DNA of 64,000 bases from NCBI GenBank assembly GCA_965140785.1, contig OZ223510.1:32001-96000 (forward strand), in the 5' to 3' direction. The stretch comes from an uncultured Ruficoccus sp. (GTDB taxonomy: Bacteria; Verrucomicrobiota; Verrucomicrobiia; Opitutales; Cerasicoccaceae). The notes below the pieces were generated by a model. The model made no database searches, was not told the origin of the DNA, and worked only from the letters and a program-made list of their open reading frames with translations. Below are positions 4,843 to 64,000 of this stretch, piece after piece (within the stretch, counting starts at the first letter, position 1; each line of letters opens with the position of its first letter). The translations under genes and the position numbers were made by a program.

Positions 4843-4856
4843 CTTATGTGTATAAA
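4843..4856. promoter_or_regulatory. Candidate operator (WTTATRYRYATAAA family)
   Basis: cttatgtgtataaa upstream of the 4911 gene; the same motif recurs at several other promoters. Confidence 0.55.
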
Positions 4857-4910
4857 TAACTCCGGGCTATCTGTGGAGTCAGGCAGAGAGTAGTTTGCAT
4901 GATAACACTC

Positions 4911-6089
4911 ATGCCGTTTACATTTCCAAATGCTCATACCCTCGGTGTGGAGGTCCAGGCTGTGACCCAGGGCCCCCGGCACCATTTTTTCGGGTACTAC
5001 GATAAATCCTGCTGGGATGCCTCCGGGCGCTGGATCCTGGGATTGGAGTCCGCCTTTATGGATCGTCCTCCTCGCGCCGGTGACAAGGCCGTGATTGGGC
5101 TCATCGATGTCCGGAACGATTTCGACTGGCGTCCGCTGGCCGAGACGGGGGCGTGGAACTGGCAGCAGGGATGCATGCTCCAATGGCTGGGAGACCGGCC
5201 GGAGATCATCTTTAACGACTTGGGCGAGGACGGTTTCTTTGCCCGCATTCTCAATCTCGAGACGGGCGAGGAGCGCCGCGTGTCGAGGCCGGTTTACGCG
5301 GTCAACCGCACCGGCACCCATGCCATCTCCCTGAACTTCTCCCGGCTGCACCACCAGCGGCCCGGCTATGGCTACGACGGAGTGCCGGATGCCTGGGAGC
5401 AGGTGGACGAACCGGCTGACGACGGCCTGTACGCGGTGGATTTGCAGACCGGCGAATCTCAGCTGATCCTGAGCATCGCCGAGGCCGCGAGCTTCCAGCG
5501 CCGGGCCGAGTTCGATGACAAGACCCACCGTTTCAATCACGCTCAGTTCAGTGCTGATCCAAATCGCTTTGCTTTCCTGCATCGCTATAAAAGCCCCGAA
5601 GACGAAGTGGGAAGTACCCGCCTGATGACGCTTAATCTGGATGGCAGCGACCTGCGCTGCCTCTCCGATCAGGGGATGGTCTCGCACTACGACTGGCTTG
5701 GCTCGTCTGCCGTGCTGGCCTGGGCGCATCGCCGGGATATTGGAAACCGCTATTTCCTCTTCCAGGATCGCAGCAGCGAGATCGAAGTGGTCGGGGAGGG
5801 CGTCTTTCACTGTGACGGGCATTGCTCCTTTTCCCCGGATAATGAGTGGATGCTGACGGATACCTATCCGGATGAGACGCACCACCGCAGCCTCCTGCTT
5901 TACCATCTGCGTACCGGCACCGTGCACCTGCTGGGGCGCTTTCTGTCTCCGCCGATGGAGTGGCAAATCCGGTGCGACCTGCATCCACGCTGGAACCGGG
6001 ACGGGACACAAGTGTGTATCGACTCGATCCACGAAGGGCACCGCCAAATGTACGTGCTGGACGTCAGTTCGCTGACTACTGGAGCGTGA
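4911..6089 (+). CDS. TolB-like beta-propeller protein, oligogalacturonate lyase-like fold (function uncertain)
   Basis: Motifs HHFFGYYDK, WNWQQG, DGHCSFSPD, TDTYPD, RCDLHPRW. Alternative start at 4899. Confidence 0.7.
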   Translation: MPFTFPNAHTLGVEVQAVTQGPRHHFFGYYDKSCWDASGRWILGLESAFMDRPPRAGDKAVIGLIDVRNDFDWRPLAETGAWNWQQGCMLQWLGDRPEIIFNDLGEDGFFARILNLETGEERRVSRPVYAVNRTGTHAISLNFSRLHHQRPGYGYDGVPDAWEQVDEPADDGLYAVDLQTGESQLILSIAEAASFQRRAEFDDKTHRFNHAQFSADPNRFAFLHRYKSPEDEVGSTRLMTLNLDGSDLRCLSDQGMVSHYDWLGSSAVLAWAHRRDIGNRYFLFQDRSSEIEVVGEGVFHCDGHCSFSPDNEWMLTDTYPDETHHRSLLLYHLRTGTVHLLGRFLSPPMEWQIRCDLHPRWNRDGTQVCIDSIHEGHRQMYVLDVSSLTTGA

Positions 6090-6103: not shown

Positions 6104-7174
6104 TTAACGTGACTTTTTAACGCGCTTGAGCGGCTTTTTATCTTTCGCGTCCATTTGGCGCAGGGTGGTGCCGTCCACCCATGTGCCGTCCACCAGTTGC
6201 GAGAGCGGGACGGCGGGCACTCCGCATTCGCGACGGTGGATCAAGTCCACCAGAAACTCCAACGCCCGCGCCCCGATCAGTTCCGGGTTTTCCCAGATGC
6301 CCGAAAAGACCTTGCCTTCATCCGGCACGGAGAGCAGGGCGAGGCCGGTCGTTTCGGGAATGCTTTCGCCGGCTTCGATCAGCCACTCACGCACCTCGGG
6401 CCAGATAGCGATGACGACATCGGGCCGGTGCTGCTTAAACCAGCGGGTAAAAACTGCCTGGGTCAATGGTTGCGGCAGCAGTGGGGTGACCCGGCCCCCG
6501 GGCGGCAGCCTCCGCTGGGAACTCAAGTAGGCGGCAGACCAGTTATAGTCGGCGCGCCGGTCGCTTTCGTCGGACAGGGCGAGTCCCGGGCGCTTATAGC
6601 CCAGCCGCCGCAGGTTTGTCATCAGCTTCGTCATGGAGCGGAACTGGTGCAGCGTGGCCAGGTGGAGAGCGGGCTTGAGCAGGGTGTAGCCAAAGGTGAC
6701 GGCGGAGAATTTCGTGAAGTCAAACTCGATGCTCATGTCCGGCCCCGGCTGGGGAGCCAGCAATATGCCCGGGATGTTACGGGCCTGGAGCATCCCGGCC
6801 AATCGGCGGGGCGTCATGTTTTTACCCCGCAGGTAGTGCTCCTCCAGGCGATAGCCCAGCTCATTAGCCCGCTTGATTGCGCCGCTAAGGTACAGGCGGA
6901 AGGTGGTGGAGTTCTTCCAGCGCGAGTCCTCGCCCTCGTTGACGAGCCAGGCCAGCGTCGCCTGGTACTGGACGGGGAGTATCTGCTTGCGGTAGGCGGA
7001 GAGGGCTGAAAGGAACGGGTCGGGGCGGTAGCCTAGGCGCTCGGCGGCCTCGTGGACTTTTTGCTGAGTTTCTGCGGAGATCTTGGGGTGCTTGGCCAGG
7101 GCCATCGACACGGCGGCCTGGGTCAGGCCGGTGGCTTCTGCGATGTTTTTCTGGGTGGGGCGCTGGGAAGCCAT
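6104..7174 (-). CDS. LacI family transcriptional regulator
   Basis: N-terminal HTH PTQKNIAEATGLTQAAVSMALAKHPKIS..LGYRPD followed by a sugar-binding domain. Confidence 0.92.
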   Translation of the reverse strand: MASQRPTQKNIAEATGLTQAAVSMALAKHPKISAETQQKVHEAAERLGYRPDPFLSALSAYRKQILPVQYQATLAWLVNEGEDSRWKNSTTFRLYLSGAIKRANELGYRLEEHYLRGKNMTPRRLAGMLQARNIPGILLAPQPGPDMSIEFDFTKFSAVTFGYTLLKPALHLATLHQFRSMTKLMTNLRRLGYKRPGLALSDESDRRADYNWSAAYLSSQRRLPPGGRVTPLLPQPLTQAVFTRWFKQHRPDVVIAIWPEVREWLIEAGESIPETTGLALLSVPDEGKVFSGIWENPELIGARALEFLVDLIHRRECGVPAVPLSQLVDGTWVDGTTLRQMDAKDKKPLKRVKKSR

Positions 7175-7298: not shown

Positions 7299-9179
7299 CT
7301 AACGTTGGACGGAGACGCTGAGGGGAGCGTCTTCCAACGAAACCTCGCGCACGTCCACCACTCTTTCCCCAATCAGCGTTGTGATCCGGTAATCGCCCTT
7401 AAAGCCGCGGGCGCTCCAGGTGCCGTCACTGTCGGTTTGGCCGGAGGTCTGCGTCCACCATTCCCCGCGCACGAGGTCGAGGTAGGCGCGTCCGGCGGGG
7501 CGGATTTGCCAGTCGAGGCTCCAGAGCGCGGCAGTGGCGTTCCAGTGTCGCCCGGCCCAGAAGCCCCATAGCTGGATGCCGGTGGCGGAGGGATGGCTGA
7601 AGACGGCGGTATAAAAGTCCCGTAGGTACTGGGCCTGGAACTGGTCGTCGGGCGAATCAATGTCAAATTCGGTGACCTTGATGTCCTTGCCGAGTACAGC
7701 CAGTCGGTCGAGCGTTTCCAGAATCTGTAAGGGTGGGGTGACGGCCCAGCCGCTGTAGTGGCACTGGATGCCGAGGCCGTCCAGCGGCGCACCTTCGTCG
7801 ATAAGGAAGTTTGCCATGCGCTCGAGTTCGTCCACACGCTCGCCGGGGGTGAAGGTGAGGGCTTCGTTGAGAAAGAGCCGGCCCTGTGGCAGCCAGCGCC
7901 GGGCTTCCTCGAAGACGTCCACCATGAAGGACTCGCCGCCGAGCAGGTCGAGAATCTCGTGGTTGAGACGGGGCTCGTTGATCACGTCCCACTCGTTGAC
8001 GTAAGGGGCGGTGGCGGTCAGCTCGTCCTGGATGTGGTCCATGATGACCTGCCGCAACTGCGCAGGATCGTGCTTGTAGTTTTGCACAAAGGCCGGCGTG
8101 CGGCTGGTGTAGAAGCTCGGCCACAGCAGGACATGGCCACGGATGTTTTTGAACCCGTTGGCCTGTAGCCATTCCAGGCCGTGAAGCGTGCGCGTGCGTA
8201 AATGTGACTCGGCCCAGTTGGGCCATTTCAGGTCATTCTCGGTACCGCAGGCGTCAAAGTTGTTGAGCAGCACGGACTGGTACATGGCCACATCGGAGGG
8301 CTTTTCGGTGTATTTTGTTTGTTGGGAATCACCGGGTAAAATCGCGTAGCCGAGCATCTCACGCACGGAGACGGCAGTGCCGAAGCCGAAGGCGTGGCGC
8401 GTCTGCTCCAGACGGACGGTAGCGCCGGGCACGGGGTTGCCGTCGGCGTCGGTAACCCGGATGTTTACCGCCTGCTTGCGAATGCGCTCGATGCGTTCGC
8501 GGGCTTCCTGGCGCCAGGCCGCATCGGGTTCGATGCCGGCATACGGATCGGGCCGGGAAGCGGGGAGGGCGGACAGCTTTGTCTCGGGGGGGAGTCGCCA
8601 CAGCTCGATGTCCTTGAACTCAAGCACTTGCGGGGCGTAGCCAAGGCGGAGGCTGAGCTTGAGCGTGTCGGGGGCGTAGGCTTTAGAGAAGCGACCCGCA
8701 GTGCTGAATGTCCGCCACTCGGCGGTGGCGGGAAAGCCGCCCCGCACCCAGAGCGTCTTGGTGAAGGGCATCTCCCGCAACTCGACGAGGGGGGAGAGGC
8801 GACCGATGCCATTCTCGGCCTCCGTGCGCAAGCAGCGGACCTTCAGGCGAAGAAAGATGACGTCGCTCCGATCGAAGCCGCTCTTGGGGTGGGCGTTGAG
8901 CTGGATGTCGTAATCATGCTTCGGGCGCGGGCCTTCCGTCGTCACACGCATAATAGCGTCCGGTGAGCCGTCCGCGGGCAACCACTCGATCTGCGCCTTC
9001 GGGGATTCCGTGACGAACATCCCCGGTCCCGGGGGCGGCAGGACCTGCTGGCCGTCTTTGAGGAAGTTCTCCCCGGCGCCACGGGCACAAAGGGCGCCCT
9101 GGCTGAGCAGCATCCCGAGGCCGATAAAGGAAAAAAGGTGCCGGAAGAAGGAGGGGTGTCGCGAGGGGGTAGTCAGCAT
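7299..9179 (-). CDS. GH10 family glycoside hydrolase with N-terminal CBM-like domain (paralog 1)
   Basis: Motifs ENDLKW, RGHVLLWP, WDVINEP (acid/base), VTEFDI (nucleophile), WGFW. Signal-like N-terminus; start is approximate. Confidence 0.88.
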   Translation of the reverse strand: MLTTPSRHPSFFRHLFSFIGLGMLLSQGALCARGAGENFLKDGQQVLPPPGPGMFVTESPKAQIEWLPADGSPDAIMRVTTEGPRPKHDYDIQLNAHPKSGFDRSDVIFLRLKVRCLRTEAENGIGRLSPLVELREMPFTKTLWVRGGFPATAEWRTFSTAGRFSKAYAPDTLKLSLRLGYAPQVLEFKDIELWRLPPETKLSALPASRPDPYAGIEPDAAWRQEARERIERIRKQAVNIRVTDADGNPVPGATVRLEQTRHAFGFGTAVSVREMLGYAILPGDSQQTKYTEKPSDVAMYQSVLLNNFDACGTENDLKWPNWAESHLRTRTLHGLEWLQANGFKNIRGHVLLWPSFYTSRTPAFVQNYKHDPAQLRQVIMDHIQDELTATAPYVNEWDVINEPRLNHEILDLLGGESFMVDVFEEARRWLPQGRLFLNEALTFTPGERVDELERMANFLIDEGAPLDGLGIQCHYSGWAVTPPLQILETLDRLAVLGKDIKVTEFDIDSPDDQFQAQYLRDFYTAVFSHPSATGIQLWGFWAGRHWNATAALWSLDWQIRPAGRAYLDLVRGEWWTQTSGQTDSDGTWSARGFKGDYRITTLIGERVVDVREVSLEDAPLSVSVQR

Positions 9180-9225
9180 GAGTTGAAGGTTAAGGCTTTC
9201 TTTTATAAAGGACAGAAATGCTCGG

Positions 9226-9263
9226 ATTATACATATAAATCTTCGCTGATTTATGCGCATAAA
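9226..9263. promoter_or_regulatory. Two candidate operators in the divergent promoter
   Basis: attatacatataaa (9226-9239) and the perfect palindrome tttatgcgcataaa (9250-9263). Confidence 0.6.
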
Positions 9264-9497
9264 AAGTTCAGTGGCTGACGCGATCCGGTAATCGCTATGT
9301 GGTGGCGGAACAATCGTTGGTTCTTGTCTCTTTCATGATCACGCTGCGGGCCCGCCCCGGACGTTCGCCTGTCGTTTGAAATCGAGAGGCCCCGGCGGTT
9401 TTCCGAGTTAATTTGCGATGTTTGCTTACCCGTCCGTATATTTCCCGATACCGCGCCTGTCTCCGGATGCGGAAAAGTTTGAGGCGGAGGTTCTGCG

Positions 9498-10095
9498 TTG
9501 AAGCGCCTCTTTGCGACCCTGCTCTCGGTGCTTTTGATCTGGGCAGCCTTGGTTTATGTGCTGCAACCCGGCCATCATAGCTCGGCGCCGGTGCTGTATT
9601 GGACGACTGACAACAACCCGGTACGCGCGATCCAGATCGAGCAGTTTCAGGAATGGCTTGTGCAGCACGACTATCCGGAAATGGTGTTGCGGCTGGACAC
9701 TTCGAACGCCGACCTGAGCAAGAAACTCATCCAGGGGGTGTCCGGGGTGGCCTCGGACCTGATCGACCTCAACCCGAGTCCATCGATTTCTTAATCCGCA
9801 TGGGCTTGATACGCCCGGTGAGCGAAGAGGCCAGGGAGATGGGCTTTTCCCTGGAGGCAATGTTTCCCCGGATCAAGGACATCATCATGCGTGACGGTGT
9901 GCAGTATGGCTTTCCGGCTAACATCACGGCGGACATGATGGTGGTGAACCGCGATTGCTTCCGCGAAGTGGGCATGGAGACTCCGCCGGAGCGGATGGAC
10001 TTTGCACAGTTCGAACGCATCGGTAAGGAATACTGCCGGCGCGCCAACGAAGGGTTGCCGCGCCCGGTTTATTTTTACTCCACCGTGCCGGAGCG
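9498..10095 (+). pseudogene. ABC sugar-binding protein, frameshifted and 3' truncated
   Basis: MKRLFATLL..LYWTTDNNPVR..KKLIQGVSGVASDLIDLNP, then a frameshift near 9775 to ESIDFLIRMG..DGVQYGFPAN..VNRDCF. Breaks off near 10095. Confidence 0.8.
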
Positions 10096-10233
10096 TTTTT
10101 CGACAGCAGCCGGGGGCAGTCCACCCACCTGATGATGGCCGCGGTGACGATGTCGGTTATACCGATGATCATTGTCTTCGTCCTCATGCAGAAGCAGTTT
10201 ATCCGGGGGATTTCTTCCGGGGCGGCCAAGGGC
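10096..10233 (+). pseudogene. C-terminal fragment of a carbohydrate ABC permease (MalG-like)
   Basis: FFDSSRGQSTHLMMAAVTMSVIPMIIVFVLMQKQFIRGISSGAAKG is the typical MalG-family C-terminus. Confidence 0.8.
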
Positions 10234-10235
10234 TG

Positions 10236-10397
10236 GGCAGTGTCTTCAAACCTCCGAAAACTTCGTATTCTAATGCCTTTTTCGCCCAAAACACGTTTCC
10301 TCAGCTCGACAAATCTTGATTTGCCTCGCCTCGAAAGCCGTGTTTTTGGCTGAAAAATTCAAGGCGACTCCTCGTTTCGAGGTTTGAAGACACTGCC
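10236..10397. mobile_element. 162-bp MITE-like element
   Basis: Perfect 19-bp terminal inverted repeats ggcagtgtcttcaaacctc (10236-10254) and gaggtttgaagacactgcc (10379-10397). Flanked by TG and TA; no transposase. Confidence 0.8.
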
Positions 10398-10506
10398 TAG
10401 GGGCACTCTCTCCCGAGCGGCTCATTTGAAGGTTTGCTTTATACATAATGAAAAATAAAAATCAAAAGCGGATGGCGGATCGACGCCCGCCGGAACTCCT
10501 TTCATC

Positions 10507-11634
10507 ATGGCGCACGTAAGCATCAAAAACCTCGTCAAGGAATACCCTCTGGAGCGCAAAAAGACGTTTCCGGCGGTCAAAGGTATTGACCTGGAAATCC
10601 CCGACCGCGAGTTCATGGTGCTGGTGGGGCCCTCGGGCTGCGGCAAGTCCACCACCATGCGCATGATCGCCGGACTGGAGGAAATAACCGGCGGCACGAT
10701 CAGCATTGACGGGCGCGTCGTCAATGATGTGGCCCCCAAGGACCGTGATATCGCCATGGTTTTCCAGAACTACGCGCTCTATCCGCACATGACGGTCTAT
10801 GAGAACATGTCCTTCGGGCTGAAGCTCATGAAGTACCCAAAGTCGGAAATCCGTCAACGGGTGGGGGAGGCAGCAGAAATCCTCGGCCTGAGCTCCATGC
10901 TGGAGCGCAAGCCCAAGGCGCTATCCGGTGGGCAGCGTCAGCGCGTGGCCCTGGGCCGGGCCATCGTGCGCAAGCCGAAGGTCTTTCTCTTCGACGAGCC
11001 GCTGTCCAACCTCGACGCCAAGATGCGCGTGCAGATGCGCACCGAAATCTCTAAACTCCACAACCGGCTGGAGGCGACCATGATCTATGTGACGCACGAC
11101 CAGGTCGAGGCCATGACGATGGGAGACCGCATTTGCGTGATGAAAAACGGGGAGATCATGCAGGTCGATGGACCCCTCAAGCTCTATAACGATCCGCAAA
11201 ACATGTTCGTGGCCGGATTTATCGGTAGCCCGCCGATGAACGTTTTTACCGGGATGATCGAGGGCGGGGACGGCGGATTGTCCTTCGTTGAAAGAAATGA
11301 AAAGGCTGCGCCGTTCCGACTTTGCCTCGACGACAGTCTGTCCGATCGGGTGGAGGACTACGTTGGTAAAGCAATCGTTTTGGGTATTCGGCCCGAGCAT
11401 ATCAGCGAGGTGCCCGCGGAGGCCGGCCAGACGGCGCATACGCTGCGAGTGCGTGTGGATGTGTCGGAGCCGATGGGGGCGGAGACGTATTTGTATTTCG
11501 ATACGGGGGCGCACACCTTTATCGCTCGGGTTCACAGCGATCATGTGTTTGAGGCCGGTCACGAGGTGACGACCGCTTTCGACATGGCACGGGTGAAGTT
11601 TTTCGACCCGGAGACCGAGCACGTCATCGGGTAG
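10507..11634 (+). CDS. Carbohydrate ABC transporter ATP-binding protein (MalK/MsmX/UgpC family)
   Basis: Motifs [47 protein letters not shown]-type C-terminus. Confidence 0.97.
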
Positions 11635-11695
11635 CGGAGCAGCCGGCTTTCGTCCGTCCGCCTGCCCGAGGCGGGCTCAAGAGCTCGGGATCTGG

Positions 11696-11709
11696 GTTAT
11701 TTGTATAAA
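11696..11709. promoter_or_regulatory. Candidate operator upstream of PEP-CTERM gene
   Basis: gttatttgtataaa. Confidence 0.55.
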
Positions 11710-11793
11710 TCAGTGCCGCCTTGTGCTTTCGAAACCATAGGCATTGACTGGTATACAGTCATTAAACCCTGATCCTAACACCCTATTACTCCT

Positions 11794-12663
11794 ATGATTA
11801 AGCTAATCTCGCGTACCCTGACGGCTGCTGGACTGGCCCTTTTTTTTGCGGCCGTGGTTCACGCCCAGGTTTCCCTCACCAGCGGGGGATACACGGAGGA
11901 TTTTAACAGCATCCCTGGTTTCTCGGCTTACGGGATCAAGACCTGGACGGACAACAGCACGCTGACCGGTTGGTACAGCCGGACGGAGGGAACCGCCGGT
12001 CAGTACTATCTGGCGACGAATGCGAACAACCAGTCGCCGAATCAGTTCCCGGCTACCCCGACCTCTATCCTGGCTCTGCGCCGCAACAGCAGTAACGCTG
12101 CGCTCGGTGCTGTCAGCAATAACACCTACAGCGGGGTTTTCGGGGCTCAGTTCGTGAACAACACCGGCTCAGCCATCAACGCGCTCACCGTCAGCTACAC
12201 CGGTCAGCAGTGGAGCTGGAGCGACACGGGTGCGAACACCCTGCAGTTCACCTATTCGCTGGACGCCAGCAGCCTGAGCGATGGCGTCTGGTCAGATGTG
12301 AACCAGCTGGACTTCACGGCCCTGTACAGTGGCAATACGGTTCAGGCTCAAGGGCTCCTGGGCGACGGGGACGAGATCTTGGTCGACAACTCTTACGAAA
12401 CCAAAGGGAGCGGGGAAGCCGGCGGGCCCGGCGCGCCCAACTACGTGGAAATTTCCTACACGATCACCGGGCTGTCCATCGATGAGGGAGAAAGCTTCTG
12501 GCTGCGTTGGGCGGATGATTTCTCCGGCTCGGGCGTGGGGCAGGCGCTCGGTATTGATAACCTGAGCGTGACAGCGGTTCCCGAACCAGCCTCCCTGGCG
12601 GCTGCGATGGCATTGGCCGCGTTGGGCGTCGCCGCGATACGCCGCAGACGGAGCCGCGCTTAG
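11794..12663 (+). CDS. PEP-CTERM surface protein
   Basis: Signal peptide; C-terminal VPEPASLAAAMALAALGVAAIRRRR. Confidence 0.93.
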   Translation: MIKLISRTLTAAGLALFFAAVVHAQVSLTSGGYTEDFNSIPGFSAYGIKTWTDNSTLTGWYSRTEGTAGQYYLATNANNQSPNQFPATPTSILALRRNSSNAALGAVSNNTYSGVFGAQFVNNTGSAINALTVSYTGQQWSWSDTGANTLQFTYSLDASSLSDGVWSDVNQLDFTALYSGNTVQAQGLLGDGDEILVDNSYETKGSGEAGGPGAPNYVEISYTITGLSIDEGESFWLRWADDFSGSGVGQALGIDNLSVTAVPEPASLAAAMALAALGVAAIRRRRSRA

Positions 12664-12816
12664 TTGTTGCTGTGCGGTGAGGGTCCGGCCCCTGCGGCCA
12701 AGCCCTCGTTCGCATGAGCGGATGCTCGTTTATATGTATATGCCAGCATCCCGTTGTCTTTTCAAACCGCTGAACGTTCAATTTTCCTAAACCCAAAATA
12801 ACAACCCGATATTCCA

Positions 12817-13683: not shown

Positions 13684-13823
13684 CTTTAGGGTATCATCTT
13701 TTTTATCGCCCGGTAAGGGTTGCTGCATCCGCGTTTCGCCAGTAAGCGTGCGGGTAGTGGCAACGCCTGTCTCCGCGGGCCGGGTCCCAACCGCATATCA
13801 TTGTACAAGACGCACACACATCC

Positions 13824-15305: not shown

Positions 15306-15442
15306 ATCCTGGACCCTGAGCAGGGAGGCGGCGGCAATGGATTGCGCGCTAGTCGCTGCTCGGCTGTGTGTATGGGTAGAGTGAATACGGCTTGCATTGG
15401 GAAGAGATGAGCCAGGGAACCGGAAGCACGATTCATTCAGAC

Positions 15443-15475
15443 AAAAAAGCCCCGATCCCTATCGGGGATCGGGGC
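15443..15475 (-). terminator. Intrinsic terminator for the minus-strand GH10 operon
   Basis: 11-bp stem gccccgatccc/gggatcggggc preceded by A6 on the plus strand. Confidence 0.8.
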
Positions 15476-16359: not shown

Positions 16360-16374
16360 GGGATTCAAGTAAGG

Positions 16375-56054: not shown

Positions 56055-56082
56055 CCCCCCCCTAAAAGCACGGGCTCGTACC

Positions 56083-57408
56083 ATGAATCTTTTTCTGGAC
56101 CGTCATTTTCCTCGTTACGCTGCCGAGCCTTTGTTGGTTCCTGCCTGGTGCCTGACGCCCGAAAGTGGGCACTGTACGCACCGCTTCTTTGATACATCCG
56201 CCATCAGTCCTTCCGGACGGTATGTGGCTGTCCTCCGGTTGCCCTTTGAAGATCGCCTTCCTTGCCCCGGTGATGTCGCCCACATCCTACTCATCGATCT
56301 GAAAACGGGTAAGGAGAGCACGGTGGCGGACACCCGTGGTTGGGAGCATCAACTCGGAGCGAACCTTAACTGGGGTGGTTCCGATCACGAGCTGTTCTTT
56401 AACGATGTGGATACCGCTATCTGGACACCTTTTGCCTGGAAACTTGATCCGCTTACCGGACGCAAACAGCGCATGGCGGGCACCGTCTATCACGCCTCCC
56501 GAGACGGACGCTGGCTTATCTCGGCCAATCTGGTCACCACCCGCAAAACTCAGCGTGGCTACGGAGTCTGTATCCCCGACGGTGAGCTGCCGCCCCGGCG
56601 CATCGGTCCCTGCGAAGGCGATGGGTTCTGGATGACTGACACACGCACCGGAGCGAAACACCTTCTCATCTCCCTGCGTACGATCTTTGACCGCCTGGGA
56701 GCGGAACTGTCCAAGACCGGCGTCGATGCCGAGCGCAGCGAAATTATCGGATTCCATTCCAAATTCAATCCCCAGGGAGACGCTCTCATGTTGAGCCTGC
56801 GCTGGTTTCCTGCGGGTGAGGAAGCGGGATGGGACATGTTTATCAAGAACTATGCGGCGATTCAATTCGCCTGGGTCACGGTGCGTATTGATCCGGAAAC
56901 CGGCGAGGCGGACCTTTCTACGCTTCATTGCGCGACCGGTCCTGATCTCTGGAAGAATCCGGGGCATCACGCCACGTGGTTTCCCGACGGGCGTCGCCTA
57001 TCACAGAACCTGGCTATTCGCGGCGCGGATGACGGTTTGCGTTTTGTGCAGGTTGATGAGGATGGCTCCGGTTTGGGCATTATTCCCGGGACGGAAAAAC
57101 TGGCTGGTTCGGGACATCCGACCCTGCACCCGGACGGCTGCCATCTTCTCACGGATACCTATCCCAATGAGCCCGTTGCATATGGGGACGGTACGGTTCC
57201 CCTGCGCTGGATCGATCTGCGCACCGGGGAGGAAAAGCACATCGCTCGCGTTAATGCCCGTAACCCGGCCGCTGCCACGCACACGTCTCTGCGTTGCGAC
57301 CCTCATCCCGCCTGGGACCGTACGCATCGCTATATCGTCTTCAACGGAATGGAGGGAGACGTGCGGAGGGTTTATCTCGCGGATATGGCAGCTCTCCTGG
57401 ATGCTTGA
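56083..57408 (+). CDS. TolB-like beta-propeller protein (homolog of the 4911 gene)
   Basis: Motifs HRFFDTSAISPSGR, WEHQLGA, GHPTLHPD, TDTYP, RCDPHPAWD. Confidence 0.7.
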   Translation: MNLFLDRHFPRYAAEPLLVPAWCLTPESGHCTHRFFDTSAISPSGRYVAVLRLPFEDRLPCPGDVAHILLIDLKTGKESTVADTRGWEHQLGANLNWGGSDHELFFNDVDTAIWTPFAWKLDPLTGRKQRMAGTVYHASRDGRWLISANLVTTRKTQRGYGVCIPDGELPPRRIGPCEGDGFWMTDTRTGAKHLLISLRTIFDRLGAELSKTGVDAERSEIIGFHSKFNPQGDALMLSLRWFPAGEEAGWDMFIKNYAAIQFAWVTVRIDPETGEADLSTLHCATGPDLWKNPGHHATWFPDGRRLSQNLAIRGADDGLRFVQVDEDGSGLGIIPGTEKLAGSGHPTLHPDGCHLLTDTYPNEPVAYGDGTVPLRWIDLRTGEEKHIARVNARNPAAATHTSLRCDPHPAWDRTHRYIVFNGMEGDVRRVYLADMAALLDA

Positions 57409-57590: not shown

Positions 57591-58679
57591 TTATTGCCGG
57601 GGAGCGGCGCACGAATTGCGCTCTATGACTTTGACAGGTAGCGTGGTAATGCTCGTCTCCGCGCTGACTTCACCTGTGGTGATTTGCCGATCGATTGTCT
57701 TGATGGCCGTTTGTCCCATCTCACAGAGCGGGAAATGGACGGTACTCAAAGTCGGGTGGTGGGTGGTGGCGCAAGGCTCGTCATTACACCCCATGATCGA
57801 AACATCCTTCGGTATGTTGAGGCCCTGTGTTTGCAGATACCCGGAAATTACTGTCGCCGCAGGATCGTGGAAGCAGAGAATCGCGGTGGGCGGCTTGGGA
57901 AGATTCATCAAATGATCGGCCACGGTGGTGAGGCTTTCACGCGAGAATTCCCCCTGGTGAGACTCACAGTGGCAGATGTACTCCGTGCGCATGGGCAGGT
58001 TGCATTCCTGCATCCCCATGGCGAACCCACGCTCCATTTGTGCCATGTTGTAGAGCCCTTCGCCGAGTGGTCCGGTGATGTAGGCGATACGCTCGTGGCC
58101 GAGGCTATTGAGGTAATGGACGGATTGCCGGGTCGCATCAATATAGTCGGGAATGATGCAGTGTGCGCCCGGTATATCAATAACGTGACCAAGATAGATG
58201 AAGGGGAGGCCGGCGTTGATGGCGTACCGTACCAAGCTTGCATTGGGGGCGCTCGCGGCGATGAAGCGCGTGCAGGACCCGTCGGTCATCGGCTTGGGGA
58301 GCTTCTCGGGTTCTTGGGTGTAGTCTGTGCGAGGGGAAAAGAGCGCATATACGACCGACTGATTCTGATGATTGAGGGTCGTGATGATCCCGCTGAGCAT
58401 TTTGCCGAAGTATTCGTGCTGCGTCCCTTGAGGGACGTCGCTGTTGAGCAGGAAGCAGATGTTGCCTTGCTCCGGGTAAAGGCGGCGCATGGCGTATTCG
58501 CTCTTCGGCTGATAATTAAGACGGCGACAGGCTTCGATGATGCGTGCCTGGGTGTCTGCTCCTACCCGGATGCCATATTCCCTGTTATTCAGGAAGGAGG
58601 ATATCGCGCTGACCGAGACATTCGCTTCCCTGGAAATTTGGGACATGGTGATCTTGATAGCGGGTGATTTAGGTGGCAT
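57591..58679 (-). CDS. LacI family transcriptional regulator
   Basis: ITMSQISREANVSVSAIS; LGHERIAYI; PTAILCFHD; IPKDVSIMG; PTLSTV. Confidence 0.93.
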   Translation of the reverse strand: MPPKSPAIKITMSQISREANVSVSAISSFLNNREYGIRVGADTQARIIEACRRLNYQPKSEYAMRRLYPEQGNICFLLNSDVPQGTQHEYFGKMLSGIITTLNHQNQSVVYALFSPRTDYTQEPEKLPKPMTDGSCTRFIAASAPNASLVRYAINAGLPFIYLGHVIDIPGAHCIIPDYIDATRQSVHYLNSLGHERIAYITGPLGEGLYNMAQMERGFAMGMQECNLPMRTEYICHCESHQGEFSRESLTTVADHLMNLPKPPTAILCFHDPAATVISGYLQTQGLNIPKDVSIMGCNDEPCATTHHPTLSTVHFPLCEMGQTAIKTIDRQITTGEVSAETSITTLPVKVIERNSCAAPRQ

Positions 58680-58862: not shown

Positions 58863-59636
58863 ATGAAAACCTCTCGTTTGTTTTTGCGCCCGGCCATGTT
58901 TGGCTTGGGCATGCTTACCGCCGCAGCCTCAATGTCACTCGCACAGACGACTGTCTATGAGTTCGATACTCCCAGCGCGGATACCTACGTTTTAAATTCC
59001 ACGCCCAATGAGAACTATGGCACGTCTGAAAGCATGTGGGTGCGTCATAGTGACAGTACCAACTATTCACGTTTGTCCTACGTAAAGTTTGCGTTGACCG
59101 GAGAGGGTATCTTGTCGAACCAGGTGCAGGACGCAGAGATTACGTTTACGCTGATAGGCATGAATAGCTCCCGTACCACGAGTACGATGCAGGTTTATGG
59201 CTTGAGTCAGGAGTATCAGTCGGGCTTAGGGCAGGACTGGGGCGAGACGGATCTGACTGCGGCAAATGCCCCCTGGAATCCGGTCGATTCGAGCCCGCCG
59301 AGCTATGCGGTGTTGCTGGGCGAATTCTCCGTCCCTGATACGGCGGCGCCTGGTACAGCGTACACGCTTTCAGGGCAGGACTTGGCCGATTTTCTTAACG
59401 ATTCGATTGCGTCACTGACTACGGAGAGTCCTTATGTGACTTTCATGCTTTTTGAAAAAGAAGTGAATCAGCCGTCCTACTGGGCGACGAAGGAGAACAC
59501 GGACGGCTATAACCCGACTTCCCTGACGATCACCTCGAGCATCCCTGAGCCCGGCACAATGGCACTGCTGTTGGGTGCCGGTGTCTTCAGCGTTGCGCTG
59601 TTGATCAAGCGCCGTCGCAACACCTGCCAACGCTAA
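58863..59636 (+). CDS. PEP-CTERM protein with DNRLRE/CBM96-like domain
   Basis: ADTYV..NYG..RLSYVKF..WGETDLTAANAP..ATKE; C-terminal IPEPGTMALLLGAG..KRRR. Confidence 0.88.
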   Translation: MKTSRLFLRPAMFGLGMLTAAASMSLAQTTVYEFDTPSADTYVLNSTPNENYGTSESMWVRHSDSTNYSRLSYVKFALTGEGILSNQVQDAEITFTLIGMNSSRTTSTMQVYGLSQEYQSGLGQDWGETDLTAANAPWNPVDSSPPSYAVLLGEFSVPDTAAPGTAYTLSGQDLADFLNDSIASLTTESPYVTFMLFEKEVNQPSYWATKENTDGYNPTSLTITSSIPEPGTMALLLGAGVFSVALLIKRRRNTCQR

Positions 59637-59646: not shown

Positions 59647-60294
59647 ATGTTACAGATGAAAGTATTGACTCTCGTTGTCGGATTTCTCGCCGTGGCTTGC
59701 CCCAGTATATGGGCGAAAGACGAATTGGTGATTTCTCCCTCTGCCGATTCCTATGTGTTAGGTGGAAAATCATCGACGGAGAACTACGGAAGCGACCACA
59801 CCTTCCTGGTGCGGCATTCCTCAAATGCTGCTTATAATCGCATTGGGTATGTACAGTTTCCCATTGGAGAGATCGGGGATGGGCAGAAGCTTGCCTCGGC
59901 AAGCCTGATCCTGAGGCTGGCATCGGTCTTCCGCGGGCGGGATACGGACGCCACTGTTCAAGTCTATGGCCTGGCCGCTATCGATTGGGAGGAGAGTCGG
60001 CTCACCGATGACAATGCCCCGGTAGCTGCAAAAATGTCCGAATCGATTCCGACTTCCGCCGCCACCTTGTTGGGGGACTTTACGGTTCCCTCTGCCGCCC
60101 AGGCTAGCCCGGGCCTGGAGTTTTCCGTCTCGGGGAAGTCCGTGGTCGATTATATTGATCAGGCTCGGAGTCAGGGCGCAAGGTTTGTGACTTTTTTAAT
60201 CGTTGAAAAGGATGTGACCGCGAATTCAGTGGCTTTCATTGCCAGGGAAAACCCCAGCTTTCAGGCCAGTACGCTTGAGCTAACCCTTCAGTAG
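59647..60294 (+). CDS. Exported DNRLRE/CBM96-like domain protein without an anchor
   Basis: ADSYV..NYG..RIGYVQF..WEESRLTDDNAP..ARE. Confidence 0.8.
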   Translation: MLQMKVLTLVVGFLAVACPSIWAKDELVISPSADSYVLGGKSSTENYGSDHTFLVRHSSNAAYNRIGYVQFPIGEIGDGQKLASASLILRLASVFRGRDTDATVQVYGLAAIDWEESRLTDDNAPVAAKMSESIPTSAATLLGDFTVPSAAQASPGLEFSVSGKSVVDYIDQARSQGARFVTFLIVEKDVTANSVAFIARENPSFQASTLELTLQ

Positions 60295-60362: not shown

Positions 60363-62207
60363 TTGAATCTTATGTACCCTTATATGTCTTTATCAAGCTG
60401 CATGCCTGCGCGTCTTTGGCGCAGCGCTGGACTCACGCTCCTGGCTGGTGCTTGCGCGCTGGGCGTTGCTGCCGAGGATGTCTCGACGGCAGACATACAC
60501 CTCACGTCTACGGCTGGTCGCGTTCAGGGGTTTGATACGATACAGGCGGCCGTGGATGTGGCTGGCCCGGGAGACGTGATCGAGGTGGGAGCTGGCACTT
60601 ACCACGAGTCTGTTCAGTTTTCGCGTTCCGGTACGTCGGATCAGCCCATTACCTTGAAGGGCAAGGACGGCGCCCATGTTGTCATCGATGGTGCGTATCG
60701 ATCCTTGCAGGAAATAGATGAGCCAGTGTGGCAGTCGTGGGAATTTGAAGGAAAGAAAATGTATAAGGCGGTTTTGCCCTTTACGGGAGAGCCTTCCATC
60801 CTGGCCATTGGGACATGGATCTCACGCTATGGGGTCCCTGGCTCGAACGGTTGTGATCAACTGATCGCAAGCTATGCCAGCCTGGCTGCCTTGAAGGATG
60901 CGGTTCGTGGTCCGGGGAGTTTTCGGCGGGGCAGTGAAGTTTTTCTTTGTTTGGATGAAAATGAGAATCCCAATGAGATTCCACTCAGTATCGGCAGTTG
61001 CGTTGCGGTTTTGGACTTGGGTAGCCAGAGTGGTATCCATATCCAAAACCTGGAGATTCGTAATGCCGGTTGGGCCGGTATCCGATTGGGTGATTCTGGC
61101 GCTCAGGAAGTGATGGGGATGGAAGAGCTTGACCTTGCCGATTTGAATGACGGCGTGGACTATTCCGACGTAGAGATCAGCAACGTGACGATCCGCAATT
61201 GCTTCCGGGGAATTTCCACCGGGAGGCTCAAGGGCGAGCATGTGACGATTGAAGGAGTCGTTGTCGCCAATGGAGTACAGGACGACATCTGGCCCTGGGG
61301 CGGGGCCTATACTGCGGGGGTGGGGCGTGCGGCAGGAAATAATTCCGACGACTTGGCTCCTTGGCGCGGTTTTGGCATTCGCCTGACGAACCTCAGTTAC
61401 AGCGAGGTTAAGGATAGCGTGGTCAGCGGCCAGTGGGATGGGATGGGGCTCAAGAAATGCCACTACGTGCAAGTTCACAATTGCACGCTACGGAATTTGA
61501 TGGACGATGCCGTCGAGCTCGAGTCGCTCGATCAGAGTGAAATACAATTCAATAATAACCTTTTGTATAATGTGTTTGCGGGCGTAAGCGTAACGGCAAA
61601 CACACCGGGGCCCATTTATGTTTACCGAAATGTCGCGGAGGTAACTCATCCCGGCGGCCGGTCATTCGTGGCTTCGTACGGTGTTAAGAGCGGCTTGGAT
61701 AACTATGGGAAGGCCGATAACGTTAAAATCTACCAGAACACTTTCTACACGCACAGCTACTCGGTTTGGGAGAAATACGGGGACCCTGCCGAGAACAGAT
61801 GGAACGGGTATGATTTTATCAACAATATATTCTATGTGTATGGGGAAGGTCGGGGGAATTATAATTTCAGAGGCCTGAGCAAGGAGGAAAGTGGCGCTGA
61901 AAATCATTGGGCGGGGAATGTTTACAACCGTGACAAACCTGAGGATGAACAGCTATCCATCACCGATGAAAATCTGGCGACATATTTCATGGATACTGAT
62001 GTTTCGGGACCGGGAGAGGCCAGAGATCTTCGCCTTCAGCCTGACTTGATATCCTGGCCGTCGGGGAGCACTTACGCGATTGATGAGGGATGGCCGGACG
62101 ACAGCGTCTCGGACTCCGACTACATAGAAAGAGGGGCTTGGCGGCCGGACATGGACGCCGGGAAAATTGGGGCACCCGAATCCGTGCTTAAGCGGGTTAA
62201 CCCCTGA
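60363..62207 (+). CDS. Exported right-handed beta-helix protein (pectate-lyase-like fold)
   Basis: TIQAAVDVAGPGDVIEVGAGTYHE..SGTSDQPITL; MDDAVELE; GPIYVYRN. Start uncertain. Confidence 0.8.
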   Translation: MNLMYPYMSLSSCMPARLWRSAGLTLLAGACALGVAAEDVSTADIHLTSTAGRVQGFDTIQAAVDVAGPGDVIEVGAGTYHESVQFSRSGTSDQPITLKGKDGAHVVIDGAYRSLQEIDEPVWQSWEFEGKKMYKAVLPFTGEPSILAIGTWISRYGVPGSNGCDQLIASYASLAALKDAVRGPGSFRRGSEVFLCLDENENPNEIPLSIGSCVAVLDLGSQSGIHIQNLEIRNAGWAGIRLGDSGAQEVMGMEELDLADLNDGVDYSDVEISNVTIRNCFRGISTGRLKGEHVTIEGVVVANGVQDDIWPWGGAYTAGVGRAAGNNSDDLAPWRGFGIRLTNLSYSEVKDSVVSGQWDGMGLKKCHYVQVHNCTLRNLMDDAVELESLDQSEIQFNNNLLYNVFAGVSVTANTPGPIYVYRNVAEVTHPGGRSFVASYGVKSGLDNYGKADNVKIYQNTFYTHSYSVWEKYGDPAENRWNGYDFINNIFYVYGEGRGNYNFRGLSKEESGAENHWAGNVYNRDKPEDEQLSITDENLATYFMDTDVSGPGEARDLRLQPDLISWPSGSTYAIDEGWPDDSVSDSDYIERGAWRPDMDAGKIGAPESVLKRVNP

Positions 62208-62228
62208 ATATGAGATTTTAACAACAGC

Positions 62229-64000
62229 GTGAACAAAAGAGCCCAGAAAACGACGGAAGATAGAGCGGGGTTTGCGCTGATTTTGGCCATATCCCTGATG
62301 GCCTTTTTGCTACTCTTGACCATCGCCCTTTCGACTCTGGTCAGGGTTGAGGTCTCCGTTGTCAATACCAGCCAACTGCAAACGATTGCCCGGCAAAACG
62401 CGCTTCTGGGCCTGACGGTTGCGATTGGAAATTTACAGACAACACTCGGGCCGGATCAGCGGGTATCCGCGCAGGCTAATATCTTGACGGGCGCAGACGC
62501 CCCTTCGAGTGCGGCCTACTACTGGACCGGGGTTTGGAATGCGGATGCGAATCACCCCGATTACGAGCTAGGTGAGCGTGTGGCCTGGCTGGTATCCGGT
62601 TCTCCGGACACGGATAACGGGCATCAGGTGAACGCGGGGGATTCCTGGGTTACCTTGTTCGGAAGCCATCTGGGCGCAAATAATCCAGAGCGTATTCGTT
62701 TACCCCGGGTGGAGATTGCCAGCGGTGGACCTATGGCGGGTAGCTATGCCTGGTGGGTTAGCGATGAGGGTGTAAAAGTCCGCTATAACAACGACGCGGA
62801 TGTGGTCTTTGGCGAGAGTGACCAAAATGGTGACCTGCGCTTATCCAGCCCGTCACACGCGGATATCGGCTCCTATGCGCTGCTCGGAGATTATAATGCC
62901 AATACCATGAATACGGAGGCGGTATTGGGATTTGACACGCTGCCGCTTGTGCATGGCGACAGCGAACTGAAAAATCCGTCGAGCCAGGCCCGGGCGCAGT
63001 TAGAGCATGAGCTGTCTTTTTCCAGCGTGGGCTTGCTGACCGATACCCGAAACGGAGGGCTGAAGCAGGATCTGACGGTACTGTTTGAGGGGGACGGAGC
63101 ACTACCGGACCTCGGCACGGGATTGCCCGATATGGATTTGTTTAAGTCGTTTTACAGTTTAAAGGATGATATTAATGACAGCGGTGTTGACGCGAATATC
63201 TCTCCCCGGAGACAGACGGCGACCGAGCACGGAATTGCACCGGTGCTGACCAATTTTCTTTTCAATTTCGGGTTTGCACCCTCGCAGTATGCCGACCCCG
63301 CCACGGTGCTGATCACGATGCGTCCGATTATTGTATTGGCCAATCCCTACAATATCAAATTGACCGCGGCCGACTACACAGTTCAGTGGAAGCCCGGGAG
63401 TCACGGAGACCCTCCCAAGGTGGCCGTGAAAATACTCGATCCTGATCCTGCGTTCAGAGAGGCTATTTCGCTTACCTTACCCTTGGACACTCTATTCGGA
63501 ACATCGTTGAGCTTTCAGCTTCCGAATGTGGCATTTGAACCCGGCGAGGTGAAGATTTTTACACTGAATGCGACGGCGCCGTTCGAGTTGCCCGCTGCGG
63601 GCGTGTCTATGACCAATGAGGGAATTCCTTCCAGTGCCTATGTCTGGGTGGACAGTGGGCAGGTGCCGAAGCCCGGTGCGACCCGGAGTAAAGGGGGCAT
63701 GGCGATGCGGGCAGGGTATAACGACTTCGTCCTCCAGATTAACGGGTCAGATGCCCAGCGGATCGAGGACGTCTTTAGTCCCGGTACTTATCTCGACACG
63801 GGGAGTGGGGCGGTCTCCATGGATGATGCCGACGGCGTACCCCTCGAATCCGTGCTGTGGGGGGTGCCGGACCGATTTAACTTTAAGACTACCTCTGATG
63901 ACAGGAACAGCTTTGGACCTACAGATAATAACACCGATGGAAGCTTTAGAGATGTACGTGGTTCGGCCTGGCTGGTGTGCGGAAATATCCGTGCTCCGCG
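62229..64000 (+). CDS. Second large PilX/Verru_Chthon A-like protein (3' partial, absent from the ORF track)
   Basis: GTG start; RAGFALILAISLMAFLLLLTIAL..ARQNALLGL..LGPDQRVSA..YWTGVW..WLVSG..WVSDEGVK..GLLTDTRNGGLKQDL. Confidence 0.88.
   Translation, partial: MNKRAQKTTEDRAGFALILAISLMAFLLLLTIALSTLVRVEVSVVNTSQLQTIARQNALLGLTVAIGNLQTTLGPDQRVSAQANILTGADAPSSAAYYWTGVWNADANHPDYELGERVAWLVSGSPDTDNGHQVNAGDSWVTLFGSHLGANNPERIRLPRVEIASGGPMAGSYAWWVSDEGVKVRYNNDADVVFGESDQNGDLRLSSPSHADIGSYALLGDYNANTMNTEAVLGFDTLPLVHGDSELKNPSSQARAQLEHELSFSSVGLLTDTRNGGLKQDLTVLFEGDGALPDLGTGLPDMDLFKSFYSLKDDINDSGVDANISPRRQTATEHGIAPVLTNFLFNFGFAPSQYADPATVLITMRPIIVLANPYNIKLTAADYTVQWKPGSHGDPPKVAVKILDPDPAFREAISLTLPLDTLFGTSLSFQLPNVAFEPGEVKIFTLNATAPFELPAAGVSMTNEGIPSSAYVWVDSGQVPKPGATRSKGGMAMRAGYNDFVLQINGSDAQRIEDVFSPGTYLDTGSGAVSMDDADGVPLESVLWGVPDRFNFKTTSDDRNSFGPTDNNTDGSFRDVRGSAWLVCGNIRAP

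Follow-up and report, generated by a model that had tools for sequence, protein, structure and literature searches.

Pilin-like and GspK-fold genes in glycan-degradation loci of a Ruficoccus genome: candidate locus-specific subunits of a shared type IV filament machinery

We analysed a 64,000-nt stretch of DNA (referred to as the window; positions 32001-96000 of its contig, OZ223510.1, here C39) from the assembly of an uncultured Ruficoccus sp. (GCA_965140785.1). Genes for carbohydrate-active enzymes (CAZymes) are accompanied there by sugar-type regulators, PEP-CTERM proteins and two kinds of prepilin-type proteins, a small pilin-like protein of 241 aa and giant proteins of more than 1000 aa. 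Our results show that small pilin-like genes are strongly enriched beside CAZyme genes in the whole genome, that a predicted structure of the 1133-aa giant resembles the type II secretion system (T2SS) subunits GspK and XcpX, and that module-specific cis-elements precede the different kinds of genes. We tentatively interpret the prepilin-type proteins as locus-specific subunits or tips that would plug into a shared type IV filament/T2SS machinery and serve glycan capture or uptake, a reading which we hold at slightly less than an even chance. An earlier note, made from the sequence of the window, had proposed pilus-based glycan capture or import by such subunits. In favour of this proposal are the enrichment, the cis-elements, the fold and core/insert pattern of the giants, the presence of the machinery and a single TonB-dependent receptor in the genome proper, while the link of PEP-CTERM genes to CAZymes away from pilin-like genes and the tracking of enzymes by pilin heads received little or no support.

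The assembly comprises 4.36 Mb in 50 contigs (completeness 90.85%, contamination 1.21%). GC content of the window is ~60%, and the names on close homologs of its proteins are those of Verrucomicrobiota (Opitutales, Coraliomargarita, Cerasicoccus, Rubellicoccus). Genes in the window were identified by Pfam and NCBIfam scans of long open reading frames (ORFs). These scans placed three clusters of regulator and CAZyme genes, each with PEP-CTERM and prepilin-type genes, where the earlier note had located them: module 1 at about 4.8-23 kb, module 2 at 33.6-53 kb and module 3 from 57.6 kb to the window end. The clusters had been described as one module repeated three times. Their architectures are indeed analogous, but they are not DNA repeats and their content differs, with a small pilin-like gene in module 1 and giant genes in modules 2 and 3. 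The stretches at 23-33.5 kb and 52-57.5 kb contain mainly unrelated, housekeeping or other genes.

For the genome-wide analysis, 3407 genes were called with a simple codon-bias caller, and regular expressions gave sets of 52 prepilin-type genes (38 solitary and 14 clustered) and 71 PEP-CTERM genes. Pfam families (E≤1e-6) were assigned to the two neighbours on each side of the 38 solitary pilin-like genes and of 38 fixed-seed random genes, a draw which by chance included one pilin locus and three giant loci. Glycoside hydrolases (GH), polysaccharide lyases (PL), sulfatases or carbohydrate-binding modules (CBM) were encoded by 31/150 neighbours of pilin-like genes vs. 5/152 neighbours of random genes, with one gene counted twice (Fisher p=1.8e-6). 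The association of prepilin genes with CAZymes over random loci, which the earlier note had predicted, is thus strong. At least one such neighbour was present in 20 of the 38 pilin loci and in 5 of the 38 random ones (p=4.9e-4), and removal of the window's own locus left 28/146 (p=1e-5). One BNR_2 neighbour was counted as sialidase-like, which is a matter of judgement; five ambiguous neighbours (two GDSL, one Sortilin/BNR, one 3-keto-disaccharide hydrolase and one beta-helix protein) were left out. Regulators of the LacI, GntR-PBP or AraC type were also more frequent beside pilin-like genes (15/150 vs. 4/152, p=0.009), as were SSF, MFS_2, RhaT or ABC-permease transporters (9/150 vs. 1/152, p=0.01). 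None of the 14 clustered pilin-like genes, which belong to machinery clusters and include gspG-J, had a CAZyme gene at ±1.

The small pilin-like gene of module 1 (20293-21018, plus strand) encodes a 241-aa prepilin-type protein recognised by PF07963 (E 1.7e-7) and TIGR02532 (E 3.9e-7). Its N-terminus contains the prepilin motif G↓FSLVE for cleavage and methylation, its alpha1 helix is pilin-like and fits solved pilin structures from residue 25 onwards, and a YFDGH motif is present C-terminally. It had been labelled an H-X9-DG-type pilin, a label which the profiles do not bear out: neither TIGR04294 nor DUF1559 (PF07596) gives a match, and a Tyr is found at the position of the first His of that family. 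Partial PF07596 matches were obtained for 6 of its paralogs. The C-terminal F.DGH motif occurs in ~28 of the 38 solitary paralogs, and the pilin-like genes without it are those in housekeeping contexts. Small proteins of this H-X9-DG-like kind would fit locus-specific shaft or accessory subunits.

PEP-CTERM genes are immediate neighbours of 10/38 solitary pilin-like genes; 1.5 were expected, and the maximum in 2000 random draws was 7. Once a missed pair is added, there are 12 adjacent pairs of PEP-CTERM and pilin-like genes. In 8 of them both genes point the same way, the PEP-CTERM gene leads and 3-230 nt separate the two. Among these 8 is gspG with a PEP-CTERM gene 230 nt before it, which lies co-directionally and immediately upstream of the T2SS operon. 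The four PEP-CTERM genes of the window (starting at 11794, 12817, 36311 and 58863) score 16.7, 20.3, 18.8 and 21.7 bits, respectively, with TIGR02595 (cut-off 16), and all four proteins end in a PEP motif, a transmembrane helix and a basic tail. PEP-CTERM proteins are very diverse across the genome, and PEP-CTERM protein 1 of module 1 groups only with other PEP-CTERM clusters (Atlas). Lectin-like domains were detected on several of those in or near the loci, namely CBM96/DNRLRE (58863), a weak Laminin_G_3 match (36311) and LamG (two neighbours). Exosortase (PF09721) matches are present at three genome loci.

The giant of module 2 (1133 aa; 46809-50210, minus strand) has 17 paralogous loci in the genome. 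At E≤0.01, Pfam gave no match for the whole protein or for its ends and NCBIfam gave none for the protein, and searches of the Protein Data Bank (PDB) by sequence and profile yielded nothing beyond a helix-hairpin-helix in DNA polymerase III alpha, which was not significant (E 1.2). Some of the homologs carry the name "pilus assembly PilX family" in the sources, and two in UniRef are called "Verru_Chthon cassette protein A". The latter family (TIGR02600) gave no NCBIfam match at E≤0.01, and pilin-like B/C/D genes are not adjacent. The giant N-termini, GFALIVALALMGF... and GFALILAISLMAF..., show a prepilin-type hydrophobic segment without Glu5 (GFALIVAL in the 1133-aa protein), and the consensus over 58 homologs is GFALV.AL.LMAF. 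An AlphaFold2 model built on the 58-sequence alignment (pLDDT 85.6, pTM 0.87) begins with a 59-residue N-terminal helix. Comparison of this model with VIA-align gave XcpX as the top match (5vtm_X, Z 12.6, rmsd 2.9 Å, 220/259 residues) and GspK as the second (3ci0_K, Z 11.9, rmsd 2.9 Å, 239/280 residues); both alignments cover 85% of each chain, over a model range of ~42-1133. ComZ was third (Z 8.2), and the remaining chains scored ≤6.6. The PilX-like label of the earlier note therefore gives way to a predicted fold of the GspK/XcpX type.

According to the model, the giant probably consists of a GspK-type pilin core (the N-terminal helix and the C-terminal ~350 residues) split by a mostly-beta insertion of ~700 residues, which spans roughly residues 100-780 of the 1133-aa protein. 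Pairwise identities among 15 full-length paralogs average 42% over residues 1-120 and 34% over 781-1133, as compared to 14-17% over 341-780: a conserved core contrasts with a hypervariable insertion. A GspK tip fold together with this conservation pattern would be expected of a substrate-specific tip on a shared machine, and the variable head on a conserved core fits a locus-specific filament cap.

The loci of the giants point in the same direction. A CAZyme context, meaning a GH, PL, carbohydrate esterase (CE) or sulfatase gene within ±4 genes, was found for 12/17 of them and some sugar context for 14/17; for the 15 loci outside the window the figures are 10 with GH/PL/CE/sulfatase and 2 with sugar regulators and transporters only. 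In 13 of the 16 own loci with a visible downstream side the giant is followed by a same-strand gene encoding 193-312 aa, and BLAST joins 11 of these genes into two families. The partner gene product of module 2 (251 aa; 46061-46816, minus strand) is secreted and was modelled (pLDDT 81.7) as an all-beta tandem sandwich of generic Ig-like fold, with the extracellular domains of PepT1/2 as the best structural match (TM ≤0.5); it falls into Verrucomicrobiota-only clusters with no Pfam family (Atlas). The gene upstream of the giants is variable and often enzyme-like (two beta-helix proteins, GH130, trehalase-like, BNR_4, polysaccharide pyruvyl transferase). Among 14 giant loci from 14 other genomes, 9 have a GH, PL or sulfatase gene within ±3 genes. 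The partner follows on the same strand in 7 of the 14, and regular expressions detected PEP-CTERM neighbours in 5.

A profile of the giant family matched 43/151 sampled Verrucomicrobiota genomes at E≤1e-10, mostly in the order of the window and three other families, and 15/15 sampled genomes of one Verrucomicrobiae family outside that order. Among 1.84 billion representatives it gave 6194 matches at E≤0.001, 5091 at 1e-10 and 3848 at 1e-30. The family thus amounts to no fewer than 3848 clusters (50% identity) in public data (E≤1e-30), and no functional study of it was found in the literature searched. At one locus in another genome (L106, G078:C1:202500-218400) two giant paralogs stand back to back with no CAZyme gene nearby, so the family is not always tied to CAZyme loci; 14/14 sampled genomes of that genus carry it.

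A machinery that could be shared by these subunits is encoded in the genome. A canonical T2SS operon with gspG, H, I, J, K, L/M, D, E and F is located at C40:7825-19216 (locus L091). There are 5 secretin matches, 1 prepilin peptidase and 7 T2SSE-family ATPases, of which three (389-396 aa) have the size of PilT-type retraction ATPases and, by this criterion, may belong to that type. At the same time, as the earlier note had stated for the window, no TonB-dependent receptor was found: TonB_dep_Rec (PF00593) gave no match on the whole window contig. In the assembly there are only 2 matches, one of them on a 44-kb contig of 39% GC (C9) that carries SusC/SusD-like and other Bacteroidota-style genes and is most likely assembly contamination. 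Since this match lies on a foreign contig, only one TonB-dependent receptor belongs to the genome proper.

Both modules 1 and 2 contain cis-elements of their own. The upstream regions of module 1 have an AT-rich quasi-palindrome in common. Its consensus TTATWTGTATAAA, with ≤1 mismatch, has 14 sites in the 4.36-Mb genome, 5 of them within the 16 kb of module 1 and all five upstream of genes: at 4844 (396-aa gene), 9226 (GH10a), 11697 (PEP-CTERM 1), 20184 (GH10c) and 20256 (pilin-like gene). The first of these, TTATGTGTATAAA (4844-4856, plus strand), is 43 nt upstream of its gene. The third occupies 11697-11709 (plus strand), and the last two lie in the divergent intergenic region between GH10c and the pilin-like gene (20184-20268), at 20184-20196 on the minus and 20256-20268 on the plus strand. 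Distances to the called starts are ~10-95 nt, or ~40-95 nt if internal Met codons are the starts of GH10a, GH10c and the pilin-like gene. Weaker copies were seen by eye before the ABC ATPase gene (upstream of a permease remnant) and before PEP-CTERM 2. Of the other 9 matches, 7 lie in islands of 22-45% GC or on the foreign contig C9; the one before a SusC-like gene on that 39%-GC, Bacteroidota-like contig was discounted as foreign. Islands of 22-28% GC were observed in this ~60% GC genome at C20:84-90 kb, on C28 and at C39:295-300 kb, and matches to AT-rich motifs pile up there.

In module 2, palindromes of the form TTGC-(AT-rich 7)-GCAA were found at TTGCTATTAATGCAA (36264-36278), between the GH110-like and PEP-CTERM genes, at TTGCTAAATTAGCAA (37435-37449), upstream of the GH42-like operon, and at TTGCTCTATAAGCAA (51931-51945), upstream of the operon of the giant. 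These are the only 3 sites in the genome outside four low-GC contigs. A looser pattern, TTGCT-N5-W-GCAA, has 11 distinct sites, comprising the 3 of module 2, 3 other intergenic and 5 genic ones. A search for perfect palindromes in intergenic DNA was uninformative except for the site at 37435, and the promoter of module 3 has no k-mer in common with the next locus. As the module-specific elements precede CAZyme, PEP-CTERM and pilin-like or giant units, genes of all these kinds probably belong to the same regulons. A search for RNA data covering positions 11001-21000 of the window returned none. Module 1 is not conserved in relatives of this bacterium, since its GH10c was matched at 1e-40 in only 3/40 other genomes of the order and the same-genus genome gave no match.

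Module 1 contains three GH10 paralogs of ~630 aa each with signal peptides, GH10a (7299-9260), GH10b (16375-18264) and GH10c (18292-20175), all on the minus strand. The true start of GH10a is probably near 9182, and the operator-like site at 9226-9238 falls within its longest ORF. The LacI-family regulator (PF00356) lies at 6104-7174 on the minus strand. A gene for a 396-aa protein with no Pfam or NCBIfam family match precedes it (4899-6089, plus strand). By eye, this protein and a 462-aa protein (56020-57408) resemble each other in H.FF... and D.HP.W.R... motifs; both are without family matches and are encoded at edges of sugar loci. The "ABC genes" of the earlier note come down to one intact gene, a MalK/UgpC-type ABC ATPase (10507-11634, plus strand). 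The ~1.2 kb before it (9261-10506) holds only remnants of an ABC transporter, the permease being reduced to a 40-aa match to its C-terminus near 10114-10233. The tandem paralogous genes of PEP-CTERM protein 1 (289 aa, 11794-12663) and protein 2 (288 aa, 12817-13683) follow on the plus strand. Downstream of the pilin-like gene, a GH2 gene (21215-22944, plus strand) is split by a single frameshift near 22192. Contig C43 encodes a 611-aa paralog to which the two frames align end to end, one over residues 28-330 and the other over 330-575; the split reflects either pseudogene formation or an error of assembly.

In module 2, an IclR-family regulator (33580-34329) and a GH110-like enzyme with GLAA-B barrels and a beta-helix (34393-36175) are encoded on the minus strand. 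Two overlapping frames of 439 aa and 239 aa cover the GH110-like gene, which looks like a second frameshifted CAZyme gene in the window. The PEP-CTERM gene (286 aa, 36311-37171, plus strand) is monocistronic, with a hairpin and T-run downstream at 37368-37393. Next comes a plus-strand operon (37534-45817) for a GH42-like enzyme of 1108 aa (37534-40860), an SSS transporter (40896-42953), a DNRLRE/CBM96 protein (42847-43647) and a beta-helix lipoprotein (43697-45817). The giant belongs to a second operon, on the minus strand, and is translationally coupled on both sides: the gene of a 553-aa beta-helix protein, a distant GH110-like enzyme with no signal peptide (50207-51868), overlaps its start by 4 nt, and the partner gene overlaps its stop by 8 nt. 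An AraC/PocR-type regulator gene (52268-53107, minus strand) lies upstream of this operon. A 953-aa double-domain PF12831 FAD_oxidored protein is encoded at 53193-56054, and this family recurs in further loci with pilin-like or giant genes (L026:6387-7721, L098:10524-11930 and L099:3-848).

Module 3 consists of a LacI-family regulator gene (57591-58679, minus strand) divergent from one tightly spaced plus-strand operon that runs from the PEP-CTERM gene through the giant, with front gaps of 10 and 68 nt. The operon encodes a DNRLRE/CBM96 protein with PEP-CTERM (58863-59636), a DNRLRE/CBM96 protein (59647-60294), a secreted beta-helix enzyme (60363-62207) and the second giant (62229-64000), a paralog of the first that extends past the window end and has 1035 aa in the genome, where a gene for a 231-aa partner follows. 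A fourth module was noticed 3.5-9 kb past the window end (99500-104973 of the window contig), whose genes, all of them minus-strand, encode a LacI-like regulator, a 440-aa protein, a PEP-CTERM protein of 306 aa, a pilin-like protein of 239 aa and a protein of 340 aa.

The window would thus represent three of the many loci in an Opitutales-type Verrucomicrobium that resemble polysaccharide utilization loci (PULs). The regulator of each locus, which is of a sugar type (LacI, IclR or AraC), may act through a locus-specific operator on four kinds of genes, encoding exported glycan-degrading enzymes, an inner-membrane sugar transporter, lectin-like PEP-CTERM proteins and a type IV filament subunit. 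The PEP-CTERM proteins with CBM96/DNRLRE or LamG domains would be anchored by exosortase at the cell surface. The filament subunit would have two forms, either a small H-X9-DG-like pseudopilin or a giant GspK-fold tip with its secreted tandem beta-sandwich partner. The single prepilin peptidase would process the small subunits, and a short filament would be assembled by the shared machinery of T2SS or type IV pilus type, comprising secretins and two sorts of ATPase, those of GspE/PilB type and those with the size of PilT. The locus-specific giant would then cap the filament like GspK caps the pseudopilus. Its variable head and the PEP-CTERM lectins would catch the cognate glycan and either hold it for the enzymes or draw it through the outer membrane, a filament route replacing the missing SusC/D-TonB route. 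In its most far-reaching form, one machine would be reprogrammed by 17 GspK-fold tips with their partners and by dozens of small subunits, each switched on together with a CAZyme set and PEP-CTERM lectins, resulting in TonB-independent, pilus-driven import as the counterpart of SusC/D in Planctomycetes-Verrucomicrobia-Chlamydiae (PVC) bacteria. This extended version we consider possible but rather doubtful.

Several observations weigh against our interpretation. For the giants, Foldseek gave no PDB match at E≤0.001 (the best was CBM4 1gu3, E 0.024, and GspK ranked 41st with E 0.15), the T2SSK profiles (PF03934/PF21687) do not match, and hhalign of the giant with the 374-aa GspK of the same genome gave a probability of 1.7%. 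Since neither sequence profiles nor hhalign nor Foldseek add support, the fold assignment comes from one aligner applied to one predicted model. Three of the 17 own giant loci are without a CAZyme context (an unclear one, one next to an ArdC gene at the end of a contig, and a frameshifted copy among housekeeping genes), as are 5 of the 14 foreign ones, and the giants are not encoded beside GspI/J-like genes. Giant and small pilin-like genes rarely occur together (1/18 within 5 genes), and the signal peptide is absent from several proteins encoded just upstream of giants (553-aa beta-helix, GH130, trehalase-like). Both the rarity of co-occurrence and the translational coupling of cytoplasmic-looking enzymes to giants argue against a simple picture of one head for one glycan. 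The same applies to the small proteins, for which pairs with similar heads share a neighbour family in 9.2% of 251 cases vs. 5.3% of 452 other pairs, and the closest paralog of the module 1 pilin lies in a locus with no GH10 gene; head similarity seems hardly to track the neighbouring enzyme families. Both cis-motifs were derived from the regions in which they were then counted, the control being their rarity genome-wide. Moreover, the gene caller and regular expressions are crude and missed members, including C39_67 just past the window end and two more pilin-like genes.

The contribution of the PEP-CTERM genes is also limited. Against a proxy CAZyme set, which was seeded mostly from pilin and giant neighbourhoods and is therefore circular for those but usable for PEP-CTERM genes, 10/71 PEP-CTERM genes had a match at ±1 (4.4 expected; reached in 32/3000 draws). 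This is the ~twofold excess beside CAZymes that the earlier note had led us to look for, but it is not significant away from pilin-like genes: for PEP-CTERM genes >3 genes from a pilin-like gene the count was 6/55 vs. 3.4 expected, which 350/3000 draws reached. Apart from adjacency to pilin-like genes, their link to CAZymes is weak.

Other functions have to be weighed as well. The first is secretion, which fits the same data: the giants may be alternative GspK-type T2SS tips and the small proteins alternative pseudopilins that make the T2SS piston specific for pushing the enzymes of their locus across the outer membrane, with no part in glycan capture or import. The pseudopilus tip contacts T2SS substrates, and the fold predicted for the giants is that of the T2SS tip subunit. 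The genome has a complete T2SS operon, most module enzymes (GH10 a-c, the GH42-like protein and the 706-aa and 614-aa beta-helix proteins) bear a signal peptide or lipobox, and the gene directly upstream of a giant is variable and often enzyme-like. Yet several of these upstream products (the 553-aa beta-helix protein, GH130 and the trehalase-like protein) are without signal peptides and hence not T2SS substrates. Export would also leave the lectin-like PEP-CTERM partners and the scarcity of TonB receptors unexplained, and no T2SS is known to use many alternative tips. We regard secretion adaptors as unlikely, and locus-specific subunits for glycan capture or uptake as the better account.

The prepilin N-terminus might also be a peptidase-processed membrane anchor or assembly signal only, with glycan or oligosaccharide binders of the periplasm or envelope feeding SSS, MFS or ABC importers and no extended filament being formed. 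The loci do contain SSS, MFS_2, RhaT or ABC-permease genes, usually with no solute-binding protein (SBP), and the related DUF1559 family bears the Pfam identifier SBP_bac_10. SSS and MFS transporters normally work without binding proteins, which speaks against such feeding. An SBP fold was not detected, and the conserved GspK-type core of the giants argues for incorporation into a filament. There is a precedent in Sulfolobus, whose sugar-binding proteins have class III signal peptides and, in the available part of the source, need the Bas system (PMC3047682). On balance, an arrangement of this bindosome-like kind appears still less probable than secretion.

PEP-CTERM proteins are generally tied to producers of exopolysaccharide and biofilm, and hypervariable heads are also typical of adhesins. 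Adhesion induced by sugars, in which fibres and a surface coat attach the cell to particles or algae upon glycan sensing with no direct role in depolymerisation or uptake, would agree with both points and with the attachment role proposed for a type IV-like pilus of Akkermansiaceae (available part of PMC13174399), but it is improbable, as 17 giants and at least 38 small subunits under different sugar-type regulators seem more than attachment needs and the translational coupling to intracellular-type enzymes (4-nt overlap, 553-aa beta-helix) suggests a tighter metabolic link.

Compared with known systems, the giants are closest to GspK/XcpX (3CI0 chain K, 5VTM chain X), with which they share the predicted fold and a prepilin-type N-terminus without Glu5. 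GspK itself lacks Glu5. A further common feature is a helix-hairpin-helix-like GPF.SL.DF.NR stretch. They differ in being three to four times larger by the mostly-beta insertion of ~700 residues, in occurring in 17 copies scattered over CAZyme loci instead of in the gsp operon, in being paired with a secreted beta-sandwich protein and in giving no T2SSK match. ComZ of Thermus thermophilus (PDB 6QVI), a large minor pilin of the competence pilus, likewise combines a pilin core with a large inserted domain. ComZ is regarded as a tip protein of its pilus that binds the transported polymer, DNA. It is a single-copy protein of DNA uptake, with an insertion and a context unlike those of the giants; by analogy, a resemblance in role may be taken as a lead. 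The small pilin-like proteins recall the DUF1559 (PF07596)/TIGR04294 proteins of PVC bacteria in their G↓F(S/T)L(I/V)E N-terminus and F.DGH end, whereas the 241-aa protein of the window is matched by neither profile and has Tyr for the first His.

The idea of pilus-mediated glycan acquisition is itself already published for Planctomycetes, Akkermansia and Akkermansiaceae, as far as the available parts of these sources go. According to them, the pilus and periplasmic-complex genes of the Akkermansia MUL are needed for mucin uptake and accumulation (PMC12418764), and a type IV-like pilus was proposed to attach Akkermansiaceae to fucose-rich glycans (PMC13174399). Both descriptions resemble our case in that pilus genes of a Verrucomicrobium take part in glycan uptake or attachment. 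MUL2 is presented there as a single conserved locus that encodes PilM and a pilin of archaeal type (amuc_1099-1102; PMC13174399), in contrast to the many different subunits dispersed here, one per CAZyme locus. The "fishing rod" hypothesis for Planctomycetes (Boedeker et al., 2017, as summarised in PMC12078418) envisages that intact polysaccharides are caught by pilin-like proteins and drawn into the periplasm; in that summary no locus-specific subunits, tips or PEP-CTERM partners are named. The Sulfolobus bindosome (available part of PMC3047682) is similar in having pilin-type signal peptides on sugar-uptake proteins and a type IV filament-like assembly. It is archaeal and made of ABC solute-binding proteins, with no GspK-like tip and no CAZyme loci. 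In the literature searched, which comprised papers available outside subscription, we did not find descriptions of a giant GspK-fold family with a hypervariable insertion and a dedicated partner inside CAZyme operons, of locus-specific pilin-like or GspK-like genes in CAZyme loci, or of PEP-CTERM/pilin-like gene pairs and module-specific operators linking them.

Verrucomicrobia and other members of the PVC group play a major part in degrading algal and host glycans, and this genome bears on the question of how polysaccharides enter such cells without SusC/D. It supplies testable candidates in the giants, their conserved partner, the pairs of pilin-like and PEP-CTERM genes and the predicted operators that would define glycan regulons. 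If our interpretation is correct, exchangeable subunits would set the substrate specificity of a type IV filament machine. The Bacteroidota PUL is a similar arrangement, in which one co-regulated locus combines CAZymes and a transporter with a regulator specific for the substrate and with proteins that bind glycans at the surface. It differs from the loci described here by its SusC/TonB-dependent receptor and SusD, of which the window has neither and the genome proper one receptor.

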